A program made the translations under genes and the position numbers. The notes beneath the pieces were generated by a model. That model was given only the letters and a program-made list of their open reading frames with translations. It did not search any database and was not told the DNA's origin. Positions 39,498 to 62,241 of a DNA stretch of 64,000 nucleotides are shown piece after piece. This DNA comes from an uncultured Eubacterium sp. (GTDB lineage Bacteria > Bacillota > Clostridia > Lachnospirales > Lachnospiraceae). The stretch spans positions 2,185-66,184 of the forward strand of contig CAMUHY010000019.1 in the NCBI GenBank assembly GCA_947088865.1. The letters are read 5' to 3'. How positions within the stretch are numbered: position 1 is the first letter of the stretch; every line of letters starts with the position of its first letter.

Positions 39498-40937
39498 CTA
39501 ACCCTTTAGCATAACAGACAATATAAATCTTCCTTTTTCTGCAATACAATCCATATCACCCGCATATTTTAAGGCACAATACCTGATATTTTTAAGCCCA
39601 ATGCCATGTAAATTGCTATCAGCCTTTGTGGTACTAGGATAGCCGTCTTTTCCCCATTTCACTTCTCCGTCAAAGCTGTTCTCAATTTCTATGAAAAACA
39701 TGTTCTGTTTCCAAAAAGACTTTATCTTGATATACAGCTCTTTATCTTGATTTTTCAGCCTTGCTTTACGACAGGCTTCAATCGCATTATCTAACCCATT
39801 ATTTAGGATAATGCCTATGTCATAAGCCCTTATATGAACCTTATCCGTCAAAAGAAAGCCGTCCGCTTCTAAATAAATACCTTTTAATTCCTTTGACGCA
39901 TAATAAAACTTACTGCTGATAACTGCGTCACTTACCACATTTCCTGTATGTATTTTCTGTTCCAAATTCATCAGCGTTTTCTTCATATCTTCAAAATACC
40001 CAGTTATTTCTTCATTTTCCGTTATCTGTCGTTCTCTTAATAATTTTTCCATAACCGACATTTGGTTTTTCATATCATGCTTTACATGGCTGACGCTCTC
40101 ATAAAAACGCTCCATTTCCAACATGGAATTTTCCATTTGGGAAATCTGGTTCTCTAATACATTTTTTTGTGTGCGTTCTTCCTGCAATCCTACCATTTCT
40201 TGTTGCAGTTTAAAACTATATAAAATAGCAAGCCAAACAACAACGGATATTAAGGTAATAAACAAATATATTTCCATGTAGTTATCGTAATAAACAAGAT
40301 GATGTTCCTTGTTTATAACTGCTATGATGAACCGAAAAATAATAGCGGTTAAAGCACCCATAAATGCAGGCAATGTGTAAAATATTGTTTCTTTTGTATT
40401 GCTTCCATCTATGGAGCGGCTATGATTTTTTATGATAATTTTCACAGAAAGATATAGCAAAATTTCTATGATTGCCTCTGCCATTAAATCAATATACTTT
40501 ACCATTGTTGGTATTATGGCAACGTTATACATAACTTCTGATAATTTATCTACCACATAATTCAAAAACAACATAGCAGCATATCCTATTTGATTAAAAA
40601 TGCTGTCTAAAGCAACAAAAAGTAATGCTATAAATATCTTTGCTGACTGACTGCCTTGATAAAGAAACACGCCGATAAAATATATTACAATCAGCTTAAA
40701 AACAAAGTATGGCATTTCCATTTCTAACATAATCAACGGATTAGCATACATGGCATATCTGACCGCAATTTTTATGATAAGCCACACCATAATCACTAAA
40801 AAGTCATGTACGCTTCTCTGCCTTATCTTCGGCTTCGTAAATTCTCTAAAAAGCAGGCACAAACAATATCCATCAAATAAATATCTGATTACAGTAATGA
40901 TAAACTCTGCCGCTTTATACATGGGAGACACCCCCAT
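39498..40937 (-). CDS. GHKL sensor histidine kinase (AgrC/VirS-like)
   Basis: Multi-TM N-terminus, HVKHDMKNQ, ILNNGLDNAIEA and HGIGLKNI. Confidence 0.9.
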   Translation of the reverse strand: MGVSPMYKAAEFIITVIRYLFDGYCLCLLFREFTKPKIRQRSVHDFLVIMVWLIIKIAVRYAMYANPLIMLEMEMPYFVFKLIVIYFIGVFLYQGSQSAKIFIALLFVALDSIFNQIGYAAMLFLNYVVDKLSEVMYNVAIIPTMVKYIDLMAEAIIEILLYLSVKIIIKNHSRSIDGSNTKETIFYTLPAFMGALTAIIFRFIIAVINKEHHLVYYDNYMEIYLFITLISVVVWLAILYSFKLQQEMVGLQEERTQKNVLENQISQMENSMLEMERFYESVSHVKHDMKNQMSVMEKLLRERQITENEEITGYFEDMKKTLMNLEQKIHTGNVVSDAVISSKFYYASKELKGIYLEADGFLLTDKVHIRAYDIGIILNNGLDNAIEACRKARLKNQDKELYIKIKSFWKQNMFFIEIENSFDGEVKWGKDGYPSTTKADSNLHGIGLKNIRYCALKYAGDMDCIAEKGRFILSVMLKG

Positions 40938-41628
40938 TCCGTAGGTATCTCATATACTGTTTAACAAAATCATGGTATCTGTTTTTTGATAAATATATTT
41001 TCTCCCCATTGGTAAGCATAATATTTTTCGTATCATATTCAGCCACATAGGATAAATTTACTAAATACCCTCTATGACAGCGGCAAAAACCCTCCCCTGC
41101 TTCTCGTTCCATATCTGCCATAACGCCATAGAATGAAATTTCTCCTCTCACAGTATGGACTGCAATTTTACGCATTTCATTTTCAAAATAAAAAATATCT
41201 GCAACATTCAAGGTTATGTTCTTGTTCCTTGTTTTGATAAATATATGTCTGCTTTTTAAGTCCTGCTTTTTCTCTATTTCTTTTTTTGCCCTTTCAAGCA
41301 CTTCTTGTAATTTTTTATCATCAACAGGCTTTATCAGATAATGCAGAGCTGCCACGTCAAAGGCTTCAAACACATATTCTTTTGCACCGGTTATAAACAC
41401 GATAACGCTTTCTTCGTCCAGTTCCCGTAATTTCTTAGCAGTTTCCACACCGTTCATTTTTTCCATTTGAATATCCAAAAAATAGATGTCAAATACCTCT
41501 CCCTGCGATAATAATTCTTCACTGGAAAAAAAGCCCTGTATCGTAACATTCGGCATATATTTTTTAATCCTGCCGCTAATCTGTTCAACAAATACTGGCT
41601 CATCATCACAGACTGCGATCTTTAGCAT
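40915..41628 (-). CDS. LytTR-family response regulator
   Basis: IAVCDDE, FLDIQM, YLIKP and FCRCHRGYLVNL. Confidence 0.93.
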   Translation of the reverse strand: MLKIAVCDDEPVFVEQISGRIKKYMPNVTIQGFFSSEELLSQGEVFDIYFLDIQMEKMNGVETAKKLRELDEESVIVFITGAKEYVFEAFDVAALHYLIKPVDDKKLQEVLERAKKEIEKKQDLKSRHIFIKTRNKNITLNVADIFYFENEMRKIAVHTVRGEISFYGVMADMEREAGEGFCRCHRGYLVNLSYVAEYDTKNIMLTNGEKIYLSKNRYHDFVKQYMRYLRNGGVSHV

Positions 41629-42457: not shown

Positions 42458-43489
42458 TTATGGAGCAAACATAGCAAGTTGCATCACAAACTTTATAGGC
42501 AGTGCAGGATATTTCATTTGATTAAAATCCCCAACAAAAAATAATTCTTTGTTAGGATAATAAAATGCAAATGAGCCGGTTGAGCCGCTATGACCTATCA
42601 AATCACCTTGACCTAAAAAAGAAGTGGAAAATCCGCCCATTTTTATTCTCATATAGCCGCTTCCATAATAAATAGGAAACATAGATAGTTGCAATTTTCT
42701 ATACCATTTCAAATCAAGAATTTTTTTGTCAAAAAGTTCTCCATGAAAAAACGCCTGTATAAATATCATTAAATCTCTTGTAGTGGTAATACAACCACCG
42801 CTTGCTTTACTACACATTATAAATTGTGGTCTATATAACTGCTTATCACCATAGTAAACCATAGGTATATATTCTTTTTCCGAAACAGGCAAATAAGTTT
42901 TAGTCATATTTATTTTTGAAAATATGTATTTTTCAAATACCTTTTTTAATGAACATTTTGTGACTTTTTCAATAATATCGCCCAATATATTATAGTTAAT
43001 ATCTGCATAGTAGGCATTATTTTTGTAATCCGGTAGAAAATGAGCTTCTTTTTCTTTAGTTAAAGCAATATTTTTGTCAAAGGTAATAAATGTATCTGAA
43101 ATTATAACTTGTTTTTTGATACTGTTTTTCCCCTCCTCATATATATCTGCCAATCCGCTTGTTTGGTAGAGTAAATCTGATATTTTCAAATCATAAGAAT
43201 AATCTTTACCTTTATAAAAATGCAAACCATTTAGATAATCAGGTTCATAAAAATTCAGCAAATTATTATTCAGTGTTATATAACCTTGCTGAACAAGAAT
43301 AAAAATACATGCAGCAGTAAACATTTTTGTTATGCTCGCCGCTATTATTGGAGTATCTATATCTTTTCCTCCATAAGCCTTTGAGAATATAGTTTCCCCA
43401 GTTCCTTTTTCAATTAGGACTACACTTTCATAAATCTTTTTTTCTTGAATATATTTATCAAATAAATCATCATAACTTTTTGTTTTCAT
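42458..43489 (-). CDS. Serine hydrolase, beta-lactamase/PBP-like family
   Basis: SITK (SxxK), YADINYNILG (YxN-like) and GHSG. Confidence 0.85.
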   Translation of the reverse strand: MKTKSYDDLFDKYIQEKKIYESVVLIEKGTGETIFSKAYGGKDIDTPIIAASITKMFTAACIFILVQQGYITLNNNLLNFYEPDYLNGLHFYKGKDYSYDLKISDLLYQTSGLADIYEEGKNSIKKQVIISDTFITFDKNIALTKEKEAHFLPDYKNNAYYADINYNILGDIIEKVTKCSLKKVFEKYIFSKINMTKTYLPVSEKEYIPMVYYGDKQLYRPQFIMCSKASGGCITTTRDLMIFIQAFFHGELFDKKILDLKWYRKLQLSMFPIYYGSGYMRIKMGGFSTSFLGQGDLIGHSGSTGSFAFYYPNKELFFVGDFNQMKYPALPIKFVMQLAMFAP

Positions 43490-51903: not shown

Positions 51904-53465
51904 TCCCCCTTATCCATTTTAAGTAAAAGATTCTTAACCTCTTTCATCACAGCTACAACTGTATCATCATGTTTTCCTGCTGCCTTTTCAATCTGTTTTT
52001 GTAAACTCATAGTAAGCTGGTTAAGGTCAAAGCCCATTTTATTCGTCTGTGATTTGCTATAAGCAAGTGGGACATTTCCCCATTCTTCTGGATAATCTTC
52101 TGCTATTTCTCCATATGCCTCAAAAATAATTTGCTTTGCTTTATTTGGTGTTAAACCACCTGCATTATTACAAACCGTTAAAATTTTATAAAGGTCGTCC
52201 ATATTAGTAATATCTGGTTCCAAAAAATATGCCTCAACATACTTAAATTGATAACTATTCAAAAGGCGATTATTAATTGCCCATGCAAGACTTTTACGCT
52301 CTGGCTGAAATACCTGTTCCTCTGTTACCTCCATCGCCATTTGTGCTGTAGCTCTGTTAAAATCAGTTGTATATCCAACATAAAGGTCTGGAAGCTGAAA
52401 AGAAGATTGCACTTTTCGACGATTATTGTCCAGATAATCTTGAAAAAGTTCATCTTTCTGGAGAATATTAGCAAGGTCTTTTATCTCAATCTCTGGCTTT
52501 TCTGATTGGTCAAAATCTATACGTCCATCTGTGCTTTCTGTTTCCAATATAATAAATGCGTGCTGCCCAGCTGCTCCCTTAATATCGTTCATATATTGCT
52601 GAAGTTTATCAAAACTTTCATTGGTTAATGTACCACCTTTAATCATAATCATAAGCGGCGTATGCCTACCATTTTCAAAATAATTATTATTAAGACTTTC
52701 TGCTTTCCTACTGCCATCTACTCCAAGTACCTGCCCCATCCAACGTACTTCACCATATGGCTCTATACCTATAGAAAATTCCATAATCTCATTAGCCTGC
52801 TGTGCTAAATTAAGAGTTTCACCTTCTTCAAGATATTTGCCATCTGTGCTATTCATAATACGAGGGTCGCCAAATTCACGGAAATATACGGTCTTTCCAC
52901 CTATTATTTCCTGCTTATATTTACAATAACGCTTTTTGCGTTCAAGCTGTTGTCCATGATGATAATATGTCGAGGGAATATATGGTTCAAGCGGCTTTGT
53001 CTTTTGAATAGATGATGTATCCTTAATAAAATCAATCTGTACAACCTCTCCTGCAATATTTCGTATTACTTCAAGATAAGCTATACCATATGTTTCTCGT
53101 GCTTCTATAATATTCTCAAACACTTCTTTAGTATCCTGTTCTGTATTCAATAATTCAATAATTCTCTCAGCTTTGCTAAATTCTTCTTTCATTTCTTGTG
53201 TTTCTTCCATGTCATCAATATATCTCACACCAATGCCAAATCCAGCAATATTATTTTTATAAGCTCTGATACATTGGGGAAGAATAGTACTATTTTTTAC
53301 TAAATTATGAAGCCCCTTAAAATCATTTGATGGTTTTATCCAATCTTCTGCATTATAAATATCATTTTCTGATATCTGTATAGAAGTATCTGCTTTTTCA
53401 ATAGGAACTTGCTGTCCTTGTTCTTTGATTATTCGTACTTGCATTCCACATTTCGATTTATTCAT
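51900..53465 (-). CDS. Phage portal protein (PBSX/XkdE-like)
   Basis: ILPQCIRAYKNNIAGFG, YGEVRW and NNNYFENGRHTP; follows the terminase. Confidence 0.88.
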   Translation of the reverse strand: MNKSKCGMQVRIIKEQGQQVPIEKADTSIQISENDIYNAEDWIKPSNDFKGLHNLVKNSTILPQCIRAYKNNIAGFGIGVRYIDDMEETQEMKEEFSKAERIIELLNTEQDTKEVFENIIEARETYGIAYLEVIRNIAGEVVQIDFIKDTSSIQKTKPLEPYIPSTYYHHGQQLERKKRYCKYKQEIIGGKTVYFREFGDPRIMNSTDGKYLEEGETLNLAQQANEIMEFSIGIEPYGEVRWMGQVLGVDGSRKAESLNNNYFENGRHTPLMIMIKGGTLTNESFDKLQQYMNDIKGAAGQHAFIILETESTDGRIDFDQSEKPEIEIKDLANILQKDELFQDYLDNNRRKVQSSFQLPDLYVGYTTDFNRATAQMAMEVTEEQVFQPERKSLAWAINNRLLNSYQFKYVEAYFLEPDITNMDDLYKILTVCNNAGGLTPNKAKQIIFEAYGEIAEDYPEEWGNVPLAYSKSQTNKMGFDLNQLTMSLQKQIEKAAGKHDDTVVAVMKEVKNLLLKMDKGE

Positions 53466-54903
53466 TCTTTCTCACCTTCTTCCTTCTTGGTGGTTTTACT
53501 GGTAAACAAAGAAGCAACACACAGTCAGCCTCATCTGGAGAAGGCAATCCTCTTTTCTTTACTGCACCCTTACTTTCTATCCTGATTTTACTTGCTTCTG
53601 TTAATTCATACTTTCGCCCTGAAAGCTGTGCTACAAGGTCATCATCATCTGGAAGTATTAATTCTACTGGCTTTTTGTTTCCCTCCTCATCAAAAGGTTG
53701 TAACAATTTTTTAACTACTGCCATCATATATGTAGTACTGTCATGGTAATACTTGTGCTTTATACGCTGACCAAAAATTATTGGATAAACCTCCAGCCAC
53801 CAAAACCGCTCTGGATTATTCCGTTTTATCTGCCGCAAGCGGTCTACCACACCGCCACCCACACCACCATCATCTACTTTGACTGGGATAGGACTATCTA
53901 TTTCTGGTTCAAGCCTATATCTGCGTACTAAAATTTCACCTAATAGGATAATATCATCTGCCGTTTTCATAGTGTCCTGCCCTTGCCGTTTCTTATAAAA
54001 CTCTGCTTTCTCGTCTATCTTGTATCCGATTACCGTTTTGTCATCACCAAAACGTGCAACATCACAAGAAATATGGATTAAATTAGGAGTTTTTCGAGGT
54101 GAAAATTCTGTCATAATAGAATTTTCTATAAGTGACAGCGGAATAAATATATCATCTTCCTGTTTTGGAAATTCTCCAAAAACACGAACCAATACAACAT
54201 TGCTATCTCTGCCATATTTTCGTATTAAAACGTCAATATTTTCTTTATTCGTTCTTAAGCTATCCATAGAGGATACGGTATGACATTTATAAAGAACTCT
54301 GTCTGAATTAAATGCATCAAAAAATGTGCCAGATGTCCTTGTTGGATTCCCGCACATTAATAATTTATTATTCGCGCCGGACAATGTACCAAGTATTGCC
54401 TCCATAATAGGGTCCGCAACACCGGAAGCCTCATCTACAATAAACAACATATTATCCTCATGGAAGCCCTGCATATTTTCTGGTTTTGTAGCCGTTCTTG
54501 CTACGGCAAACCAGCGCTTCTCATTGCCAACCAGATAAATATAAGTCTTTGTCCATTTAAGAATTTTTGAAAGCAAAGGAGATTTACTCATCCATTTACT
54601 AACTTCGGACCATAACACATCATGTAATTGTTGCTTTGTTGGTGCAGTTGCCACAATTCTTGGATAAGGATAACAACAAAGAAACCATAATAAAGTCACA
54701 GCCTCTAAACCTGTTTTTCCAACACCTTGCCCAGACTTAATTGCAACCTTTGCATTTTCTGCCAAATCCATTAATGCTGCCTGCTGCCATTCGTCAGGTT
54801 CAAACAACAAGACTTCTCTAGCAAATAAAACAGGATTCTTGCGATATTGTGGTATTCTCTGTTGAAAAAATTGTTTCCGTAAAATGTGTAAATCCTTATT
54901 CAT
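53458..54903 (-). CDS. Phage terminase large subunit
   Basis: SGQGVGKT (Walker A-like), FIVDEASG, GNPT, DVARFGDD and SPDEAD nuclease motif. Confidence 0.92.
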   Translation of the reverse strand: MNKDLHILRKQFFQQRIPQYRKNPVLFAREVLLFEPDEWQQAALMDLAENAKVAIKSGQGVGKTGLEAVTLLWFLCCYPYPRIVATAPTKQQLHDVLWSEVSKWMSKSPLLSKILKWTKTYIYLVGNEKRWFAVARTATKPENMQGFHEDNMLFIVDEASGVADPIMEAILGTLSGANNKLLMCGNPTRTSGTFFDAFNSDRVLYKCHTVSSMDSLRTNKENIDVLIRKYGRDSNVVLVRVFGEFPKQEDDIFIPLSLIENSIMTEFSPRKTPNLIHISCDVARFGDDKTVIGYKIDEKAEFYKKRQGQDTMKTADDIILLGEILVRRYRLEPEIDSPIPVKVDDGGVGGGVVDRLRQIKRNNPERFWWLEVYPIIFGQRIKHKYYHDSTTYMMAVVKKLLQPFDEEGNKKPVELILPDDDDLVAQLSGRKYELTEASKIRIESKGAVKKRGLPSPDEADCVLLLCLPVKPPRRKKVRKNE

Positions 54904-55627
54904 TGCTTTCTACCTCTTTTCCTAAAACAGCCATCATCCAATTATCAACCAGTTCATCACCCATGTTTTCACTATCTAGCTTTGCCTTTTCTGCTCGATA
55001 TTTTGATAATACTTCAATAGCTTTCGTTCTTGCTTTTTGCACTTTTGTAAGCTCTGCTTCTAATGCCATAATACTATTCATAACCGATTTTGTATTTGTA
55101 ATCGTTGTTTCTGTAACCTTTTTACCAACACATTTACCATCTGCATTAATTGAATTTTTTACATTCTTTTTTTTGGATACAGTTTCTACAGCAAGTCCAT
55201 GATTTTCTTCCTCTATTTTTTTATACCTTTTAATACTTTTCATAAACCTGTGTTCTCGTATAGAAAACATTTGCAACTGCATGATTAATTGCTGCTCTTC
55301 CTTATCATCCATACTATCAACTAAAATCTGTTCTTCCTTATCAAGAGTATCCCAATATACTTTAGAATAAGCTCCATGCTTTTGTGCATTCTTATTTCGT
55401 TGTTGCCCACCCTTTGATTTTTTTTGCAACGTTGCATTTTTTTTACTATCTTTTTTTGCAACGTTGCATTTATTTTTTTTTAACTTATTGCCCCAATCAT
55501 ACCTATTTTTCCAACTGCGAACAGTACTATCTGAAACCCCTAATCTTTCTGCAATTTCTACCATTGTTAAGCCATCATTAAATAACTTTTCGGCTTCAAT
55601 CATTTTGTCGCTTGGCGCTCTTGGCAT
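54896..55627 (-). CDS. Phage terminase small subunit
   Basis: N-terminal HTH (IAERLGVSDSTVRSWKNRYDW) and GGQQRNKNAQKHGAYS. Confidence 0.88.
   Translation of the reverse strand: MPRAPSDKMIEAEKLFNDGLTMVEIAERLGVSDSTVRSWKNRYDWGNKLKKNKCNVAKKDSKKNATLQKKSKGGQQRNKNAQKHGAYSKVYWDTLDKEEQILVDSMDDKEEQQLIMQLQMFSIREHRFMKSIKRYKKIEEENHGLAVETVSKKKNVKNSINADGKCVGKKVTETTITNTKSVMNSIMALEAELTKVQKARTKAIEVLSKYRAEKAKLDSENMGDELVDNWMMAVLGKEVESNE
55425..55468. repeat. Tandem palindromes inside terS (candidate pac/TerS-binding sites)
   Basis: TGCAACGTTGCA at 55425-55436 and 55457-55468, separated by A/T tracts. Confidence 0.6.
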
Positions 55628-55719
55628 ATCACCACCCCTCTTCTATTCGTTTTATTTTTTTTACTGAAAAGCAACGATACTTTTTCAGTTTATTTATACG
55701 AATATTATTCGTTATGACA

Positions 55720-56241
55720 TTAAATCTTTGTTATAAATTCTGCTTTGGAATATCCCTCGTTTGGCTTAATCATCATTCTTAGAAAATCCTCTTTTGAAAA
55801 ATCAGAAAGACGAAATACCTCTTCTGGTTTCATACCAAGTTGCTTACCAATTTCTTCAACCGATTTTCCCTCTCCTAACAGTTCCTTTATAATCGCTTTC
55901 ATAGGCTCTAACAGATGGGTACCTCTAGCTCTATTATGAGTAACTGTTCCATAAATATTGCTTGCTTTATCTTTATGTTCTACAATAACAATAGGCACTT
56001 TTCCTTCTAACATTGATTTTAGAGGTTCTTCTCCTGCAATAGTCCAACGATGAAAGCCATCAATAATTGTAAAATCAGGTCTTACTACAATTGGCAATGT
56101 CCATCCATTGGTTAAAATAGATTGCTTCAACAATTCCAGATTCTGTTTTGACACCTTATTAGGGTTATAATCATTTGGCTTTATAACGCCTCTATCTACC
56201 CATTGAAGTGTAGAAAGAGGGCTACTCAGTTTGCTGTCCAT
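55720..56241 (-). CDS. ParB/Srx-like protein (IbrB-like)
   Basis: PNDYNPNKV, GWTLPIVV, IIDGFHRW and HNRARGTH. Confidence 0.85.
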   Translation of the reverse strand: MDSKLSSPLSTLQWVDRGVIKPNDYNPNKVSKQNLELLKQSILTNGWTLPIVVRPDFTIIDGFHRWTIAGEEPLKSMLEGKVPIVIVEHKDKASNIYGTVTHNRARGTHLLEPMKAIIKELLGEGKSVEEIGKQLGMKPEEVFRLSDFSKEDFLRMMIKPNEGYSKAEFITKI

Positions 56242-57406
56242 TTTTCAATTTCTCCTTTTTTTTCGCTTCTTCAATGTATTTACTATATATTTGCTGATAT
56301 AAAGACCTTAATGACCGTTCCTTTGGGTCGCCCGAAATTAATGCTTCATATATAGCTTTACAATCTTTGTTATCTGCAATAACAGACACATTCATAAAAA
56401 AATTTCTATACCTATCTGCTACATATCGCTTATGCTTTGTTTGAAAATGAGTATCCATATCGGAAAATAACTCTAAAAGAGCGGCTTTATAATCTTTTTG
56501 AGCTTTTCCTTTTTCATTTTGCCTTCTAATAGCTGTACTTCTTCCAAACATCTCACTGTCCCAATATAAAGCAGCAAGGTACGCGTTTGGTTCTCTTCGG
56601 ATTATCCTTTCCATAAGGTCTGGATAATACTCATTCATCTTTACTAAAGTTTTTGCAGTATCAATAGAAAAAAACTGCGACACTCTTAATTGCGATTTTC
56701 GTGTTCCAGATTGCCACAAAAACAAATAAACTTCTGGTATATCAATTTTTTCTCTAAGCAAATACAGCCATACATCATTATTAGTCCAATCATATATGGG
56801 GAATACCTGATGCTTATTGGTCATAGATTTACCTGCTTTAAGCATTGCTGCAATATTTTGTAAACGCTGAACGGACTCTGCAGCTCTTATCCCTGTTATT
56901 GTAATTCCATCATTACATATTCGTGGCAAAAAGTCTTGATAGGCATCGATTCGTGGTCTTAATAATGGGTGACTTTTAATGGAAAAGGATGGTGGCTGCC
57001 TTACCCAAACATCCTTTTTATACCTATCCCAGCAAATAAATGTTTCATCATTCGATAATTCATTAAAACAATTATAATGTTTTACTTCTAAACAAAACCA
57101 TTCAAATTTTGCTCCAATCAACATAAACTTTTTTCGCCACTCTCTTACTTTTTCATCCATACATGGAAAGATAGCTTCTTCATCAATAAATTGTACCATT
57201 AATTGTGCTGGATTAATTTCTCCTGCTTGTATCAAATCCATTACAAGCTGGGATAAGCATAAACTATCTTTTCCACCACTAAAAGACATATATACTGGCA
57301 ATCCATTTTGAAATACATTTTTAATTCTAATTTTTGCTGCTTCTACAACATCAATACTAGCTATACATCTTTTTATAGCCATATTTTTTCTCCACATTTT
57401 GGACAA
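56222..57406 (-). CDS. PAPS-reductase-family PP-loop protein (IbrA/DUF3440-like)
   Basis: SFSGGKDS PP-loop, FIDEE, GIRAAESVQR and PIYDWTNNDVW. Confidence 0.85.
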   Translation of the reverse strand: MSKMWRKNMAIKRCIASIDVVEAAKIRIKNVFQNGLPVYMSFSGGKDSLCLSQLVMDLIQAGEINPAQLMVQFIDEEAIFPCMDEKVREWRKKFMLIGAKFEWFCLEVKHYNCFNELSNDETFICWDRYKKDVWVRQPPSFSIKSHPLLRPRIDAYQDFLPRICNDGITITGIRAAESVQRLQNIAAMLKAGKSMTNKHQVFPIYDWTNNDVWLYLLREKIDIPEVYLFLWQSGTRKSQLRVSQFFSIDTAKTLVKMNEYYPDLMERIIRREPNAYLAALYWDSEMFGRSTAIRRQNEKGKAQKDYKAALLELFSDMDTHFQTKHKRYVADRYRNFFMNVSVIADNKDCKAIYEALISGDPKERSLRSLYQQIYSKYIEEAKKKEKLKNGQQTE

Positions 57407-58011
57407 ACCATAAACTTTTGTATTTCCGTAGCATTATTTTCTATAACATGGCTTTCTGTAATATTATTTTTCTCTGTTTCTGCATGATTAGAATCAAAAT
57501 CATTTATATTGGATTGTATGTCATTTATTTTTTGTTCTTTTCTTTCACCATTTTTTTTAATATTTTGGATTTCTTCATCATCCAGTGTTCCATATTCTGA
57601 AATTTTATCCGTAACTTCTTCTGCTTCACAGACCATTTGTTTTAAAATTTCTTCATCAAAACCAGGTATATCTAAATCTCCTTGCAATTCTTCTAAAAAG
57701 CTGTTTAACGTGTCTAAATTTTCAATACCTAAATTAAAAATTTTATTGTCTGCAATCATCAGCTTCTTTTTTTGATTTTCAGTAAGATTACTATATTGAT
57801 ATACTTCTGCTGTTTCTTCTCCCATAGCAACCAATGCATCATACAAGCCATTTCCTGCTAAAATAACCTTCTTTTCATCAATAACAATGGGACGAATTTG
57901 TCCAAACATCTTTATACTACGTTCAAATTCCTTTAATTGCTGCCCTGTATGAATCCGAACATTCTTTTCTGGCTTTATAAGGTCTGTCAATTTCATTATC
58001 GTTACTTTCAT
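57373..58011 (-). CDS. ParB N-terminal domain protein with an acidic linker and C-terminal zinc knuckle
   Basis: NVRIH..SIKMFGQIRPIVID..ILAGNG, ADNK and terminal CPKCG. Confidence 0.82.
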   Translation of the reverse strand: MKVTIMKLTDLIKPEKNVRIHTGQQLKEFERSIKMFGQIRPIVIDEKKVILAGNGLYDALVAMGEETAEVYQYSNLTENQKKKLMIADNKIFNLGIENLDTLNSFLEELQGDLDIPGFDEEILKQMVCEAEEVTDKISEYGTLDDEEIQNIKKNGERKEQKINDIQSNINDFDSNHAETEKNNITESHVIENNATEIQKFMVCPKCGEKIWL

Positions 58012-58083
58012 ATTTGATTCATATCCTCCTACTTATTTTGGAGGAACGATTGACGTATGATGTATATGCTATCTGCAAATAAC

Positions 58084-58127
58084 AAAAAAAGACAACACTT
58101 GCACTCTTTTGTATGCAAATGCTGTCA
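58084..58127 (-). terminator. Intrinsic terminator inside the cassette
   Basis: Minus strand GACAGCATTTGCAT-acaaaaga-GTGCAAGTGTTGTC followed by T8. Confidence 0.7.
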
Positions 58128-58925
58128 AGTGTTAGCAATCGTATTCATTGTTTCCAAAAACACTTTTGCACTCTGTAAATATTGTGCCGCCTCAATTACT
58201 ATTGAACGGTCAATCTCATAAATTTCAGACCATGCGTTTTCAATACTCCCAGTCCATTGTCTTGCTGGCCATGGGTGAGTTCCGCATAAATAACCATTTT
58301 TCCAATTATAAATTGGCGGCATTTTTAAATGATAATAATAAATATATGCTAATATCTGCTCATGTGTCCAATCAGACAGTGGACTATACCTTGTCACTCC
58401 TTGTCTGTTTGTATAAATATTGTCTCCTTTACCGACATAATTCCCATCTGCTCTGCGCCTTCCAAGAAGTAGCATATCAAGACCATTCTCTTTATAATAT
58501 GTTGCTTGTCCCCTATGTTGAACAATCTGAAACCATTGTGATGCAATTTTACTATCTTGCGGAAACAACATATTTTGATGAGCAGCTAACCATTTTATAT
58601 CTTGTCCTGTATTGATTATAGATAATTCTGGAGGCTTATTTTCCTCTATCCATTCCATAAATGGTTTATATTCCAGCTTACAGATTACAAGAACACATGG
58701 TGTTATTCCTGCCTGTTGGCAAATATCTCCAAGTACTAAAGAATCTTTCCCACCGCTCCATGCGTAAGCTGCTTTTTTATTTTTAGTCTTCTCTTTGATA
58801 TCTTGTATTGTTTTATAAACGAATTGCTCCAATTCCTCTTTAGGCACAAGCTGTTCAATTTTTTCAAAGGCATGAATCCAATCCGCATTTTTTACTCTCT
58901 GCTTTTTTCCAAGTACATCACCCAC
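58125..58925 (-). CDS. Second PAPS-reductase-family PP-loop protein
   Basis: AWSGGKDS PP-loop, GRRRADGN and SPLSDWTHEQ. Confidence 0.8.
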   Translation of the reverse strand: MGDVLGKKQRVKNADWIHAFEKIEQLVPKEELEQFVYKTIQDIKEKTKNKKAAYAWSGGKDSLVLGDICQQAGITPCVLVICKLEYKPFMEWIEENKPPELSIINTGQDIKWLAAHQNMLFPQDSKIASQWFQIVQHRGQATYYKENGLDMLLLGRRRADGNYVGKGDNIYTNRQGVTRYSPLSDWTHEQILAYIYYYHLKMPPIYNWKNGYLCGTHPWPARQWTGSIENAWSEIYEIDRSIVIEAAQYLQSAKVFLETMNTIANT

Positions 58926-58926
58926 T

Positions 58927-60303
58927 TTATAAATTCCTCCTTCTGCTTACAATGAAAGCGATTACACCAGACAAAAGAACGGTTAAAAGACTGCCTATTG
59001 TTTTGTAAATTGCGATGCCTTGTATATTTCCATATGCAAATATTGGCAAACCAATCATCCAAGCAAAAATAATCCCTATCACAATTCCTTGTGATTTCAA
59101 TGTTACTCCTTTAAGCGTAAATATTGTTGGAAGCAATGTAGCTGCCCTTAACGTTCCATACATTAAAAATAGGTGTGTTACTGTTAATCTTGGTATATTC
59201 GCTATGATAATCCCAACCAGTAATAATACAATCATAACTAATTTTGTTTTTCCAAGTGTCGTTTTCTTGAAAATATCTGTTGTAAGAGAAGATATGGCAC
59301 ATAAATTACTATCAATAGTAGACAATAATCCTGATACAACCATAAATAAAAAGGCAATAACTGCTCCTGATGGAAATAATGTATTTATTAATTCAAAATT
59401 AATAACACTTGTGTCTGTTGCAATATATTCCATACCTGCACCAATAAACCCAAGTATCCCCATCGACAAAGGAACGATACCAAACAGCACTGCTCCTACA
59501 AAAAAGGCTTTACCTATCTTTTCTTTTTTCACACAAAAAGCTCTCTGCCAAAAACATTGGTCGCCAAATGGTCCAGAAAGAAGTCCTATCATGGTAGGAA
59601 GTCCAAAGCCTAAAAAGATTTCTAATCCTCTCCTTGAAAACAACGACCCTGCATCCTTTGTAATTCCTCCTAAGCCTTTAACCAATGTTCCTAGCCCTCC
59701 ACCATTCTTCACACTACAAATGATAAAGCCAATGCTAATAACCAACATAAAAATCATTTGAATGGCATCGGTCAGTATCGATGCTTTTATTCCTGAAAAC
59801 TGTGAATAAGAAAATGCTATAATTGCCATAATAAACGTCATTACTGCAAATGGTACTCCAGTCAATATACTTAGTATCTTACTACCTGCCAACAATTGCA
59901 CACCTGTTGACAATGCTGACAATACTCCTAATTGAAATAAATAAGTATTCCTTACAGCTTTAGAATGATACTTTTCATACATATAGCCAGACAAAGTAAT
60001 TCCATTTGGCATTTCTTCTCTTATTTTCTTTGCAAAAGGAATGAAAACGATTAAACATAACACATTTGGTACTAGAAACCAAAAAAGCCCTGCAAAGCCT
60101 TTTGTATAAGCATTTTCGGCAGATGTGAATAAAGCTGGCGCCCATATCCATGTTGCTGCAATGCTTAATGCTGATACAAACCAACCTGTATTTCTGTTTC
60201 CGACGCAAAATCGTTCTATATTGTTTTCTTTTTTTGTCATAAGTATTGTTGTTCCTAACATTACTATTGTATAAATCAATAATACAATCCATGTATAGTC
60301 CAT
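58927..60303 (-). CDS. Sodium:solute symporter (SSS/SLC5 family)
   Basis: About 13 hydrophobic segments; SIAATWIWAPALF, FSGIKASILTDAIQ, DQCFWQR and SGLLSTIDS. Confidence 0.88.
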   Translation of the reverse strand: MDYTWIVLLIYTIVMLGTTILMTKKENNIERFCVGNRNTGWFVSALSIAATWIWAPALFTSAENAYTKGFAGLFWFLVPNVLCLIVFIPFAKKIREEMPNGITLSGYMYEKYHSKAVRNTYLFQLGVLSALSTGVQLLAGSKILSILTGVPFAVMTFIMAIIAFSYSQFSGIKASILTDAIQMIFMLVISIGFIICSVKNGGGLGTLVKGLGGITKDAGSLFSRRGLEIFLGFGLPTMIGLLSGPFGDQCFWQRAFCVKKEKIGKAFFVGAVLFGIVPLSMGILGFIGAGMEYIATDTSVINFELINTLFPSGAVIAFLFMVVSGLLSTIDSNLCAISSLTTDIFKKTTLGKTKLVMIVLLLVGIIIANIPRLTVTHLFLMYGTLRAATLLPTIFTLKGVTLKSQGIVIGIIFAWMIGLPIFAYGNIQGIAIYKTIGSLLTVLLSGVIAFIVSRRRNL

Positions 60304-60380
60304 ATTTTTTCTCCCATCATTTATTTGAGAGGAACTTATGCCTCCTGCTTTTGTATTCTCTCCTTTCTTGGAAAAATTGC

Positions 60381-60416
60381 ATAAAAAAGGAAGCCTGATT
60401 TATTTTCAGACTTCCC
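60381..60416 (-). terminator. Terminator-like hairpin upstream of the symporter
   Basis: Minus strand GGAAGTCTGA-aaataaa-TCAGGCTTCC followed by TTTTTT. Confidence 0.65.
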
Positions 60417-60501
60417 CCGACGTTTGATTTAGAATTTTACAAATATGATTTTCTCACATTTATATTGAAAAATCAAGGAAGACTTTTTGCAGATGGAGGT
60501 T

Positions 60502-61092
60502 TTAATGTACGTTCAATCCATCCACCCCAAAAATAAGAGCAGCTAATCGTTCTGTTGCCATTTTAATATCTTCATATACATTTCTTGTTGATATATTTTG
60601 TTTTTCTGCAATCTTTTTCACAGATAAAATATTCTCTGATATATATCTGTCCCATAGGACTTCATATCGCCTCATATCAATATCTCTATTTAAAGACTTC
60701 TCACAATATACTGCATATAATCCTAACATGGTTTCAATATGTGATACAATAATAGCTGTTCTGGTAACGCTTCTTTTTATGCTTTCAATAATAATTTCAT
60801 TATCATACAATGACATCATGGACTCTAAAATATCAAGTGCGGACTCCTCCATTTGCGTTCTTCCAAACACTGAATTTTCTGCATGTTCTTTTAACATATG
60901 ATAATTGCGAAGCAATAACTTTGTATTATGTAGCTTCCTGCTTGCTCTCTTTTCCTGTTCTTTCTTTTGGTTTTGATGAAATATTTTTACACCTTCCTTT
61001 GCACCAATTATTGCTGCCTTGTTATAAATATCCTCTAATTGCTCATGTGTCAAAAACACTACTACATTTTTTTCTTCTGATTGGATTTCCAT
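60502..61092 (-). CDS. Phage late transcriptional activator (RinA/ArpU/sigma region 4-like)
   Basis: NTKLLLRNY and a C-terminal HTH (LSVKKIAEKQNISTRNVYEDI); sits at the early/late boundary. Confidence 0.72.
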   Translation of the reverse strand: MEIQSEEKNVVVFLTHEQLEDIYNKAAIIGAKEGVKIFHQNQKKEQEKRASRKLHNTKLLLRNYHMLKEHAENSVFGRTQMEESALDILESMMSLYDNEIIIESIKRSVTRTAIIVSHIETMLGLYAVYCEKSLNRDIDMRRYEVLWDRYISENILSVKKIAEKQNISTRNVYEDIKMATERLAALIFGVDGLNVH

Positions 61093-61242: not shown

Positions 61243-62241
61243 TTAAATCAGGAATCTCCAATTCTTTTTTTTACAAAATTGCTTAAAGCAATCCTTACAT
61301 AGAAAGCAAAACTGCTTTGGCTGTTCTCCACGTTTTGACCTAGCAAGCATAGTAATCATGTCACTTTTTCTTAAATAATCTTTACATTCTGCACATGTGT
61401 CAAACAACTTCTTTTCCATTTTGGGACTCACTTGTAAATGCTGTAATGTTTCTGGAAATTCTCTACGCATATTATCTTCACCAACAATAGGTATTAAGCT
61501 ATCCTTCATAAATACTGGTATTTTTGAATTTTCACACCATTCTACAATATCTTCTATCCATTCTTTTTTGGGAATAATTTTATCTTTTCTTCTGTCAGTT
61601 TCTGCACCAATAATTACCCAATTGGGAGGTGACTGTTGAATACTATTTCCCATTTCTCCAAATGGTTCAAAAAGTGGTTCAATACTCAAAAATGTATTGA
61701 TACCTTCTGCCCAGTAAAATTGGGTATGTGGATTGGTAATTGTTGAACCATACCACATATTTTTTTGTACTGGCAATCCAACTTTACTATGTGCCAATTC
61801 AATATAGCGTTTTGGATTCTTAGTAAGAAACAAATAATTATGTATTGGATAGTTCATACAGGTATTAAAAATCTCTTTAATCCATTCATCTGGCACCCAA
61901 GAACCAAACATATCACACATAGCACCAACAAAAAGAATATTTCCCATTTTTAATTTTGAAAGACTATCTACTCTATATCTATGAAATGTTGGTTCAAATC
62001 CAAACGGATATATTAATGGATTACCTGTTTCATTTATCATTGGAGTATCTAACAAATATAAATTTCCTCCACCATCAGCTGATGGCACTAAAGAATAATC
62101 TTTTTTTGCCATTTTATTTAGCATGATATTTCCAGCAAAACGCTTTGACATTTTCCTTGCATAACAATATTCACAATGATGTCGGCATCCTGTGATGGGA
62201 TTCCATGTATGGTCGCACCATTCAATTTTTGAACGATTCAT
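61243..62241 (-). CDS. DUF5131 (phage Gp37/Gp68, radical-SAM-like) protein with a C-terminal Cys-rich extension
   Basis: IEWCDHTWNPITGCRHHCEYCYA, FLTKNPKRY, FLSIEPL, WVIIGAET and PVFMKDSL. Confidence 0.88.
   Translation of the reverse strand: MNRSKIEWCDHTWNPITGCRHHCEYCYARKMSKRFAGNIMLNKMAKKDYSLVPSADGGGNLYLLDTPMINETGNPLIYPFGFEPTFHRYRVDSLSKLKMGNILFVGAMCDMFGSWVPDEWIKEIFNTCMNYPIHNYLFLTKNPKRYIELAHSKVGLPVQKNMWYGSTITNPHTQFYWAEGINTFLSIEPLFEPFGEMGNSIQQSPPNWVIIGAETDRRKDKIIPKKEWIEDIVEWCENSKIPVFMKDSLIPIVGEDNMRREFPETLQHLQVSPKMEKKLFDTCAECKDYLRKSDMITMLARSKRGEQPKQFCFLCKDCFKQFCKKKNWRFLI

Follow-up and report, generated by a model that had tools for sequence, protein, structure and literature searches.

Enzymes with the phosphoadenosine phosphosulfate (PAPS) reductase fold that act on DNA include DndC, SspD and BrxP. 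DNA phosphorothioation clusters encode a member of this family (DndC or SspD) and contain the regulatory gene dndB, and ParB-superfamily proteins are partners of DNA-modifying enzymes in both Dnd (DndB) and Dpd (DpdB). A Vibrio phage fusion of a PAPS-reductase-fold domain to Dam, together with the adjacent p0019, confers anti-Dnd activity in engineered phages (Piel et al., bioRxiv 10.1101/2021.05.05.442762). Virome surveys have counted viral PAPS-reductase-like genes as cysH/cysD auxiliary metabolic genes, which were most abundant in human-associated samples. In gut viromes they rank with the auxiliary metabolic genes counted most often, and the usual interpretation is one of sulfur metabolism. 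The IbrAB pair of Escherichia coli phages combines a PP-loop enzyme of this fold with a ParB-like protein and, to our knowledge, has had no chemistry assigned to it for more than 20 years. Here, we describe a five-gene cassette from an uncultured Eubacterium sp. (Lachnospiraceae) in which homologues of IbrA and IbrB are accompanied by a second ParB-like protein (ParB1), a second PP-loop protein (PP1) and a permease of the sodium/solute symporter (SSS) family. It lies in the phage-derived part of a 64,000 nt stretch of contig CAMUHY010000019.1 (positions 2,185 to 66,184), here called the window, and is a permease-coupled variant of a widespread IbrAB-type triad.

All five genes are intact. They lie co-oriented on the minus strand, with a regulator-like gene at one end and terS at the other, in the order that a sequence-only reading of the window had given. 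The permease gene (58927..60303, 458 aa) is the first, and its product matches PF00474 (E 2.5e-21, 76.5 bits against a cutoff of 22.8) and phrog_20720 (E 1e-218). A single base separates its stop codon from the GTG start codon of PP1 (58125..58925, 266 aa), which contains the motif AWSGGKDS and matches PAPS_reduct (E 1.3e-10) and phrog_424. ParB1 (57373..58011, 212 aa) is a ParB-N-like protein with a C-terminal CPxCG..WL knuckle and a match to phrog_620 (E 9e-46). It is followed by the IbrA homologue, a protein of approximately 386 aa with the PP-loop/PAPS-reductase fold (56222..57382; PAPS_reduct E 5e-14, phrog_2302 E 7e-97), and by the IbrB homologue, a 173 aa protein of the ParB/Srx fold (55720..56241; ParB_N 29.9 bits against a cutoff of 26.3, phrog_2159 E 6e-73). 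The reading frames of ParB1 and IbrA overlap, as do those of IbrA and IbrB, the latter by 20 nt. The IbrA ORF (open reading frame) could start at 57406, but as homologues are 382 aa long the true start is probably the ATG at 57382, and the overlap with ParB1 would therefore be 10 nt rather than 34. The tight packing that had been described thus holds for the SSS/PP1 junction and for the last three genes, but not for the 113 nt between PP1 and ParB1, which contain a terminator-like hairpin and a conserved structured leader.

Whether the set stays together in other phages was a check set beforehand. A scan of IMG/VR with the permease returned 145 confirmed loci, of which 80 were kept, and a scan with a more distant member of the permease clade returned a further 104 (80 kept). 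A scan with IbrA yielded 214 loci and an alignment-based scan of one genome per species yielded 400, with 80 kept from each. Cassette proteins were placed on these loci using tblastn and iterated hidden Markov models (HMMs), and co-occurrence was counted at loci with at least 4 kb on either side of the anchor gene. ParB1 and IbrA were present at all 85 permease-anchored viral loci, 84 of which also had IbrB. Conversely, the permease was found at 43 of the 44 viral loci anchored on IbrA (at least 69% identical), and the set was present at 56/62 genome loci. Altogether, the same gene set was seen at more than 250 independent loci, and the arrangement is therefore far beyond chance. In the window and at these loci, all ORFs detected from the regulator-like gene to terS were members of the five cassette families. 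Exact-peptide scans of the viral and genome collections with a distant SSS representative (P0248) returned no matches.

The co-occurrence survives changes of phage backbone, host phylum and gene order. In ten loci (L216, L217, L219, L220, L226, L229, L230 and L232-L234) the order is ParB1-SSS-IbrA-IbrB with overlapping frames, in L221 the permease gene follows IbrB (ParB1-IbrA-IbrB-SSS), and in L215, L222-L228 and others the order is SSS-ParB1-IbrA-IbrB and PP1 is missing. The genes in the reordered cassettes overlap by 20-30 nt. In most loci, some of them divergent, the cassette has a terS/terL pair 3' of it, and the terminase families differ. Hosts include Lachnospiraceae, Oscillospiraceae, a Clostridioides difficile chromosome, and Treponema and Bacteroidales bins, and the set was also found in environmental viral contigs. 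Pairwise distances between permeases correlate with those between the corresponding IbrA (r 0.71) and ParB1 (r 0.76) proteins, compared with r 0.56 for TerL, and the correlation between IbrA and TerL is r 0.44. PP1 is missing from 13 cassette-bearing viral loci with full flanks, and in L234 it lies 3' of IbrB. As the permease stays with the triad in divergent, reordered and PP1-less loci, we conclude that the conserved core consists of the permease, ParB1, IbrA and IbrB, and that PP1 is an accessory found mostly in the gut clade. The coupling of a transporter to this enzyme set, proposed from the sequence, is thus borne out for ParB1, IbrA and IbrB, but PP1 is dispensable.

The ParB1-IbrA-IbrB triad itself is already known and widespread. 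When IbrA was used in a tblastn search, 222 isolated-phage records were returned, and isolated phages of Actinobacteria, Bacteroidota and Firmicutes combine the families phrog_620, phrog_2302 and phrog_2159 5' of their terminase genes with no permease. All three have the same place 5' of terS/terL, without SSS or PP1, in Faecalibacterium phage FP_Taranis (gp36-38), Riemerella phage PJN03 and Arthrobacter phage Salgado (gp5-7); the gene order differs in PJN03, and in Salgado a methyltransferase gene lies 3' of the triad. The permease slot in FP_Taranis is occupied by gp35 (L155:4350-5351), a 333 aa membrane protein with approximately 8-9 hydrophobic segments that matches no Pfam or PHROG family. 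It may be a degenerate SSS relative, though the alignment (hhalign probability 12.6%, E 0.002) is weakly collinear and provides a lead only. Among phage records, the permease itself was found in just one, an unannotated faecal contig.

Compared with the E. coli phage pair, where the IbrA and IbrB genes likewise adjoin and overlap, the cassette is larger by a permease, another ParB-like protein and, in many cases, another PP-loop enzyme. It lies directly 5' of terS, whereas IbrAB of Streptococcus thermophilus and E. coli phages do not adjoin the terminase genes. The Dnd/Ssp systems and BREX type 4, with BrxP, share with the cassette the combination of a PAPS-reductase-fold enzyme and a ParB-superfamily protein. 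In contrast to Dnd/Ssp, the cassette has no linked DndA/IscS, DndD, DndE, SspB/SspC or restriction partner and includes a transporter instead. The Vibrio phage PAPS::Dam protein likewise ties a PAPS-reductase-fold domain to a DNA-modifying enzyme and to escape from a host defence based on DNA modification, but it is a single fusion in a podovirus and has no ParB or transporter. Fusions of a ParB-N domain to a DNA methyltransferase (phrog_498), found in phages and plasmids, are typically near terminase genes, as ParB1 is; ParB1 differs from them in that it has no methyltransferase domain, ends in the CPxCG knuckle and overlaps the IbrA gene. In the literature searched there was no description of a permease/PP-loop/ParB coupling, in agreement with what had been suspected, and no mechanistic study of IbrAB.

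The permease has at least 11 hydrophobic segments, and its match to PF00474 spans residues 32-376. With the stricter superfamily model TIGR00813 it scores 124 bits, below the cutoff of 184. Across 60-103 clade members R37, D248-Q249-x3-Q253-R254 (GDQxFWQR) and S328/D331/S332 in transmembrane segment 8 are nearly invariant, and as SSS hallmark residues are retained down to 30% identity, conservation argues for a working transporter. By sequence, these permeases form a small, divergent SSS clade (1677 of 1.84 billion representatives at E<=0.001; 245 clusters at 50% identity and E<=1e-30) that appears closest to DUR3. A profile of the clade aligned over its full length to the DUR3, vSGLT, CHT1 and SGLT structures, and among PDB entries DUR3 was the best match (E 1.9e-55, 191 bits), followed by vSGLT (5.9e-36) and CHT1. 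The suggestion that urea/polyamine-type carriers are among its relatives is therefore upheld, with DUR3 as apparently the nearest characterised relative. DUR3 proteins are urea/H+ (and polyamine) symporters (Transporter Classification 2.A.21.6), and share with the phage permease the motifs S-x-W-x-WA in TM1 and GxxGxFW in TM2. The two are only approximately 25-30% identical, the phage proteins are shorter (approximately 460 aa against 700 aa for DUR3), and the likeness is seen in the PDB profile match. In yeast, DUR3-type carriers transport polyamines in addition to urea.

Clade members were also found outside phages, at six genome loci. A gene for a TrmB-family regulator lies divergent from that of the permease in L235, L236, L238, L239, L240 and L283; L239 is an unclassified uncultured-bacterium bin, one bin is labelled archaeal and the others belong to Bdellovibrionota and Alphaproteobacteria. 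In a Micavibrio bin (L237:2870-6065) the permease gene is inserted between trpF and trpB, and stop and start codons overlap. In Phycisphaeraceae (L305:4165-7338 and L308) it is 12 bp 3' of a gene for a 580 aa asparagine-synthase-like PP-loop amidotransferase and near a C5 DNA methyltransferase gene, and in Kaiserbacteria (L285:4402-8352) it is flanked by two unclassified PP-loop ORFs (SWSGGIDS and ASSGGTDS). The recurrent position of cellular permeases beside adenylating enzymes is suggestive but names no substrate.

PP1 and IbrA are distant paralogues. The conserved features of the IbrA clade are an invariant SFSGGKDS motif, Cys82/105/113/125, REPNAYLAALYWDSEMF and GDPKxR. An hhalign comparison with IbrA of E. 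coli phage PhiR5_2 gave a probability of 99.4% (E 3e-21) over columns 23-380 versus 3-383 of 394, and IbrB is 37% identical to its E. coli phage counterpart (E 1e-31), so that both assignments made from the sequence stand. The C-terminal part of IbrA is equivalent to the DUF3440 region, though the Pfam DUF3440 model, which matches the E. coli and S. thermophilus phage proteins, does not match the window protein at E<0.01. Similarity to DndC is confined to local stretches, with 28.4 bits against a cutoff of 290 for TIGR03183 (residues 166-219) and E 7e-9 for the PADLOC model, and the match to BrxP is also weak and local. An Fe-S cluster, considered for IbrA on account of its four conserved cysteines, became less plausible when only two of them were found in the E. 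coli protein.

In PP1, the AWS(G)GKDS motif, Cys69 and Cys214 are conserved. Alignment with a CysH profile reaches only the GYLSVGD...KW region, and the remainder of the PP1 C-terminus has no cysteine. A CGTH sequence in PP1 was considered as the ECGLH motif of CysH and rejected, because in the profile alignment it falls earlier, within the GYLSVGD region; the ECGLH catalytic cysteine motif is present in neither PP1 nor IbrA. The AlphaFold2 model of PP1 has a pLDDT (predicted local distance difference test score) of 89.6, and Foldseek matched it to TtuA, CysD, CysH, TilS, GMP synthase and FAD synthase at TM scores of only approximately 0.45-0.5, while a search of BFVD returned no closer named relative. 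Two database proteins are PP1/IbrA chimeras: P0284 (411 aa) joins PP1 residues 1-264 to IbrA 203-390, and P0391 (460 aa) joins PP1 1-69 to a full-length IbrA. They may reflect deletions between the paralogous genes or may be assembly artefacts.

The two PP-loop proteins bear directly on a reading in which 'cysH-like' genes boost assimilatory sulfate reduction during infection. Pfam PAPS_reduct matches to both, and the practice in virome surveys of counting such genes as cysH/cysD, speak for it. Yet NCBIfam CysH models score the window proteins at 16-22 bits against cutoffs of 154-235, CysD is also far below its cutoff, and both genes are linked with those of ParB proteins and not with cys genes. 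As both proteins have a canonical SGGKDS ATP-pyrophosphatase loop, which CysH does not, and neither has the ECGLH cysteine, their sequences indicate that PP1 and IbrA are not ordinary sulfur-assimilation enzymes, and we regard auxiliary sulfur metabolism as extremely improbable. A sulfur-assimilation role, which the earlier reading had named as the finding that would undo it, is accordingly not supported.

ParB1 has no match in Pfam, and its ParB domain becomes visible through PHROG models. Residues 1-147 match the ParB domain of the methyltransferase family phrog_498 (E 1e-27) and PADLOC MTase_II (E 1e-13), and ParB1 is homologous to gp5 of phage Salgado. It ends in ...CPKCGEKIWL, and both knuckle cysteines are present in 96-97% of homologues. 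Whereas ParB1 is recognisable as a ParB/Srx protein by fold but not by motif, IbrB has intact DGFHRW and THNRARG motifs, conserved at 90% or more. The traits of a partition ParB (ParABS) were not seen: the proteins are just 173 and 212 aa, the TIGR00180 score is 24.8 bits against a cutoff of 58, and the cassette has no ParA gene.

The gap between PP1 and ParB1 contains three predicted hairpins, all read from the minus strand. The first (58091..58126), which begins at the PP1 stop codon, resembles an intrinsic terminator, with a 14 bp stem followed by seven T residues. The T-run and the hairpin that follows it (TGTCTTTTTGCTATTTGCAG...) recur in close relatives, and the number of terminator-like sites across the region is not above chance. 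If the 58126-58091 hairpin does act as a terminator, SSS and PP1 may form their own transcription unit unless there is read-through.

Downstream is leader hairpin 1 (58068..58083), with a 5-8 bp stem and an invariant UUGCAG apical loop, which was found 5' of ParB1 in 136/283 cassette loci. Compensatory changes were seen in all six of its six stem pairs. Pairing was found in 82.9% of alignment cells, compared with 32-43% when the partner column was slid, and the covariation score was 0.741, against 0.08-0.19 in the slid controls and 0.26 in shuffles, with 0/500 shuffles reaching it. As the loop is asymmetric and the arms covary, selection acts on a single-stranded structure, most simply the mRNA. 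In leader hairpin 2 (58023..58047) an anti-Shine-Dalgarno sequence, UUCCUCC, can pair with the ParB1 Shine-Dalgarno (SD) sequence GGAGGA, and minimum free energy folds gave the same two-hairpin layout with the SD sequence sequestered in 24 of 25 diverse leaders. Searched with Rfam 15, the segment 55500-61300 gave chance-level matches only (E>1), so that the leader belongs to no family in that collection, and an assignment to known riboswitches, including the preQ1 classes, was rejected on this ground. From its predicted structure we infer that the leader is a translational operator for the enzyme genes.

Three further features of these sequences were recorded. A four-codon mini-ORF (ATG AAT CAA ATA TGA; 58008-58022, minus strand) starts 1 nt past the SD sequence, and its stop codon overlaps the ParB1 start codon (ATATGA), so that translational coupling of ParB1 to the mini-ORF is possible in this phage. 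Within the IbrA gene (56368-56384, minus strand) lies another TTGCAG hairpin, with a stem of 5 bp (TGTTATTGCAGATAACA); approximately 0.4 such hairpins are expected by chance per window. Apparent TTGCAG hairpins inside the SSS gene were discarded as by-products of conserved codons (GFAGL and QLLAG).

By analogy with the systems above, we tentatively take the cassette to be a nucleic-acid modification or anti-restriction module, at somewhat less than even confidence, with DNA as the most likely target. The DUR3-like permease, whose sequence supports a transporter, would bring into the infected cell a small solute that is polar and probably nitrogenous. Adenylation of a target oxygen with ATP is common to all PP-loop ATP pyrophosphatases, and the invariant SGGKDS motif suggests that the IbrA-type enzyme would do the same. 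ParB1 and IbrB would bring IbrA to DNA, as suggested by domain fusions and by the Dnd, Dpd and methyltransferase precedents. More speculatively, the imported solute or a derivative would then supply the group that replaces AMP, and PP1, where present, would pre-activate or process the solute. The modelled fold of PP1 resembles those of TtuA, TilS and GMP synthase, which are adenylating enzymes that act on nucleic acids or nucleotides. The marked DNA would be packaged and shielded from restriction-type defences of the host, as the Vibrio phage PAPS::Dam precedent suggests, and the fixed place of the cassette where the packaging operon begins would suit a mark put on DNA shortly ahead of encapsidation. 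The leader that sequesters the ParB1 ribosome-binding site would gate translation of the enzyme genes. The more specific proposition that a class of tailed phages uses a DUR3-like permease to take from the environment a donor group for DNA hypermodification, one that the host does not make, and that IbrA and two ParB-fold partners, switched on by an RNA leader, install it, is possible but doubtful.

Several observations weigh against DNA modification with an imported group. Many phages carry the triad without any transporter, and an imported substrate is therefore not generally required. The sole known experimental phenotype of IbrAB is regulatory, namely activation of eib genes in E. coli. 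ParB1 has GxGL where DGxHR is expected and is thus without the catalytic His/Arg, and no cysteine desulfurase, DndD/E-like or glycosylase-type partner was found in the cassette. Retention of only two of the four clade cysteines in E. coli IbrA precludes assignment of a cofactor, and the AlphaFold2 model of IbrA, built from homologues at least 79% identical, has a pLDDT of 50 and is unusable. Judged by its position, the cassette appears to be expressed together with the packaging genes.

The main rival to DNA modification is a regulatory or packaging accessory, in which the triad either co-activates transcription of late genes or, in the manner of ParB-type clamps, marks DNA or loads it for the terminase, and the permease supplies a cofactor or a signal of the state of the host or environment. 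Such a role is consistent with the position of the triad beside terS/terL in phages of Actinobacteria, Bacteroidota and Firmicutes, with the regulator-like gene 5' of the cassette and with the leader, which probably controls translation of the triad; the annotation 'co-activator of prophage gene expression' carried by IbrAB-type phage genes mirrors the eib phenotype. However, an invariant ATP-pyrophosphatase loop in an enzyme of 380 aa would be unexpected in a pure regulator, the ParB1 domain is of the type fused to methyltransferases, and S. thermophilus and E. coli phages carry IbrAB away from the terminase genes. Any regulatory effect might, moreover, be a consequence of DNA modification, and we consider the regulatory or packaging alternative unlikely. 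Candidate defence operons with predicted PAPS-reductase/ParBc combinations have been reported in the literature, and IbrA has weak PADLOC matches to BrxP and DndC, while the DUF5131 gene near the cassette matches the PADLOC candidates PDC-M41B and PDC-M30B. These would suit a prophage defence or superinfection exclusion system that modifies or senses DNA to guard the lysogen, with the permease as effector or supplier. But the PADLOC scores are local and low, there is no linked nuclease or other effector, and the cassette co-diverges with its phages and keeps its place in the late/packaging operon across lineages, unlike a variable hotspot. A role in defence is quite improbable.

The remaining possibility, that a nutrient- or cofactor-salvage moron made up of SSS and PP1, with its own terminator, happens to sit beside an IbrAB-type triad, takes support from the 1 bp spacing of SSS and PP1, the strong terminator-like hairpin 3' of PP1, the separate leader 5' of ParB1 and the variable presence of PP1. 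It is largely refuted by the comparative data, and we give it very little weight: the permease remains with the triad where PP1 is missing, at least 10 divergent loci have its gene placed between those of ParB1 and IbrA, with reading frames that overlap, and only one of 44 IbrA-anchored loci is without it.

If the cassette does modify DNA, it would represent a new anti-restriction chemistry, one that is widespread among phages of Clostridia from the human and mouse gut and extends to a C. difficile prophage. If the modifying group does come from the environment, IbrAB would gain a biochemical function and the cassette would be the first transporter-dependent phage DNA modification. A practical route to the chemistry leads through the transporter, as the identity of the imported compound would point to the group to be sought on DNA. 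Cultured lysogens with the full cassette are Acetatifactor muris DSM 23669 (L254), Otoolea muris DSM 111138 (L277), Acetatifactor aquisgranensis DSM 110981 (L270), Anaerotruncus colihominis DSM 17241 (L298) and the C. difficile strain of L309. A large group of viral 'cysH-like' genes without the reductase catalytic residue is instead found in an operon with ParB-fold proteins and a permease beside packaging genes, and the cassette has also yielded an unclassified, covarying RNA leader.

Directly 3' of the cassette are terS (54896..55627), whose product matches phrog_1889 (E 1e-52), Phage_terminase and Terminase_5, and terL (53458..54903; phrog_5902 and phrog_2), followed by a portal gene; both terminase genes are on the minus strand. 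On the 5' side, the regulator-like gene (60502..61092, minus strand, 196 aa; phrog_1558 E 1e-51) lies directly 5' of SSS in most gut-clade loci. It had been called a late activator. The gene is indeed conserved in this place, but its product has only weak similarity to the Q-like antiterminator family phrog_79 (E 4e-4) and to HTH_11, and a late-activator role for the phrog_1558 protein is assumed.

The phage-derived part extends from approximately 42.4 kb to the end of the window, and chromosomal genes, including those for topoisomerase subunits, an NAD-ligase, a copper ATPase, a GH31 enzyme and acetolactate synthase, occupy 1-41.6 kb. Between 41600 and 52000, genes for portal, head-morphogenesis, XkdF-type protease, capsid and head-tail adaptor proteins were found, with no tail tube or tape-measure gene. 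A fragment-like 343 aa 'minor tail protein with lysin activity' is encoded at 42458-43489 with non-structural genes beyond it, and a 237 aa ORF at 40915-41628, next to a GHKL-type kinase gene, matches solely phage families of no assigned function. A truncated prophage, or else a capsid-only element, would have this appearance. When the window was compared with all fetched loci using megablast, there was no match above 78.5% identity, while searches with sampled words placed its sequence in mouse-gut metagenomes. Thin contigs in two runs flagged as possibly RNA (X24 and X26) are 95-99% identical to 54200-59800, which extends from terL through SSS; they represent a related prophage in which the flanking phage genes are not matched, and are uninformative on expression. 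The DUF5131 protein (61243..62241, minus strand), which has an N-terminal CxxxCxxC radical-SAM-like motif, matches TIGR04471 ('radical SAM mobile pair protein A') in addition to the two PADLOC candidates named above, and its gene is found a few kb 5' of the cassette in many related phages.

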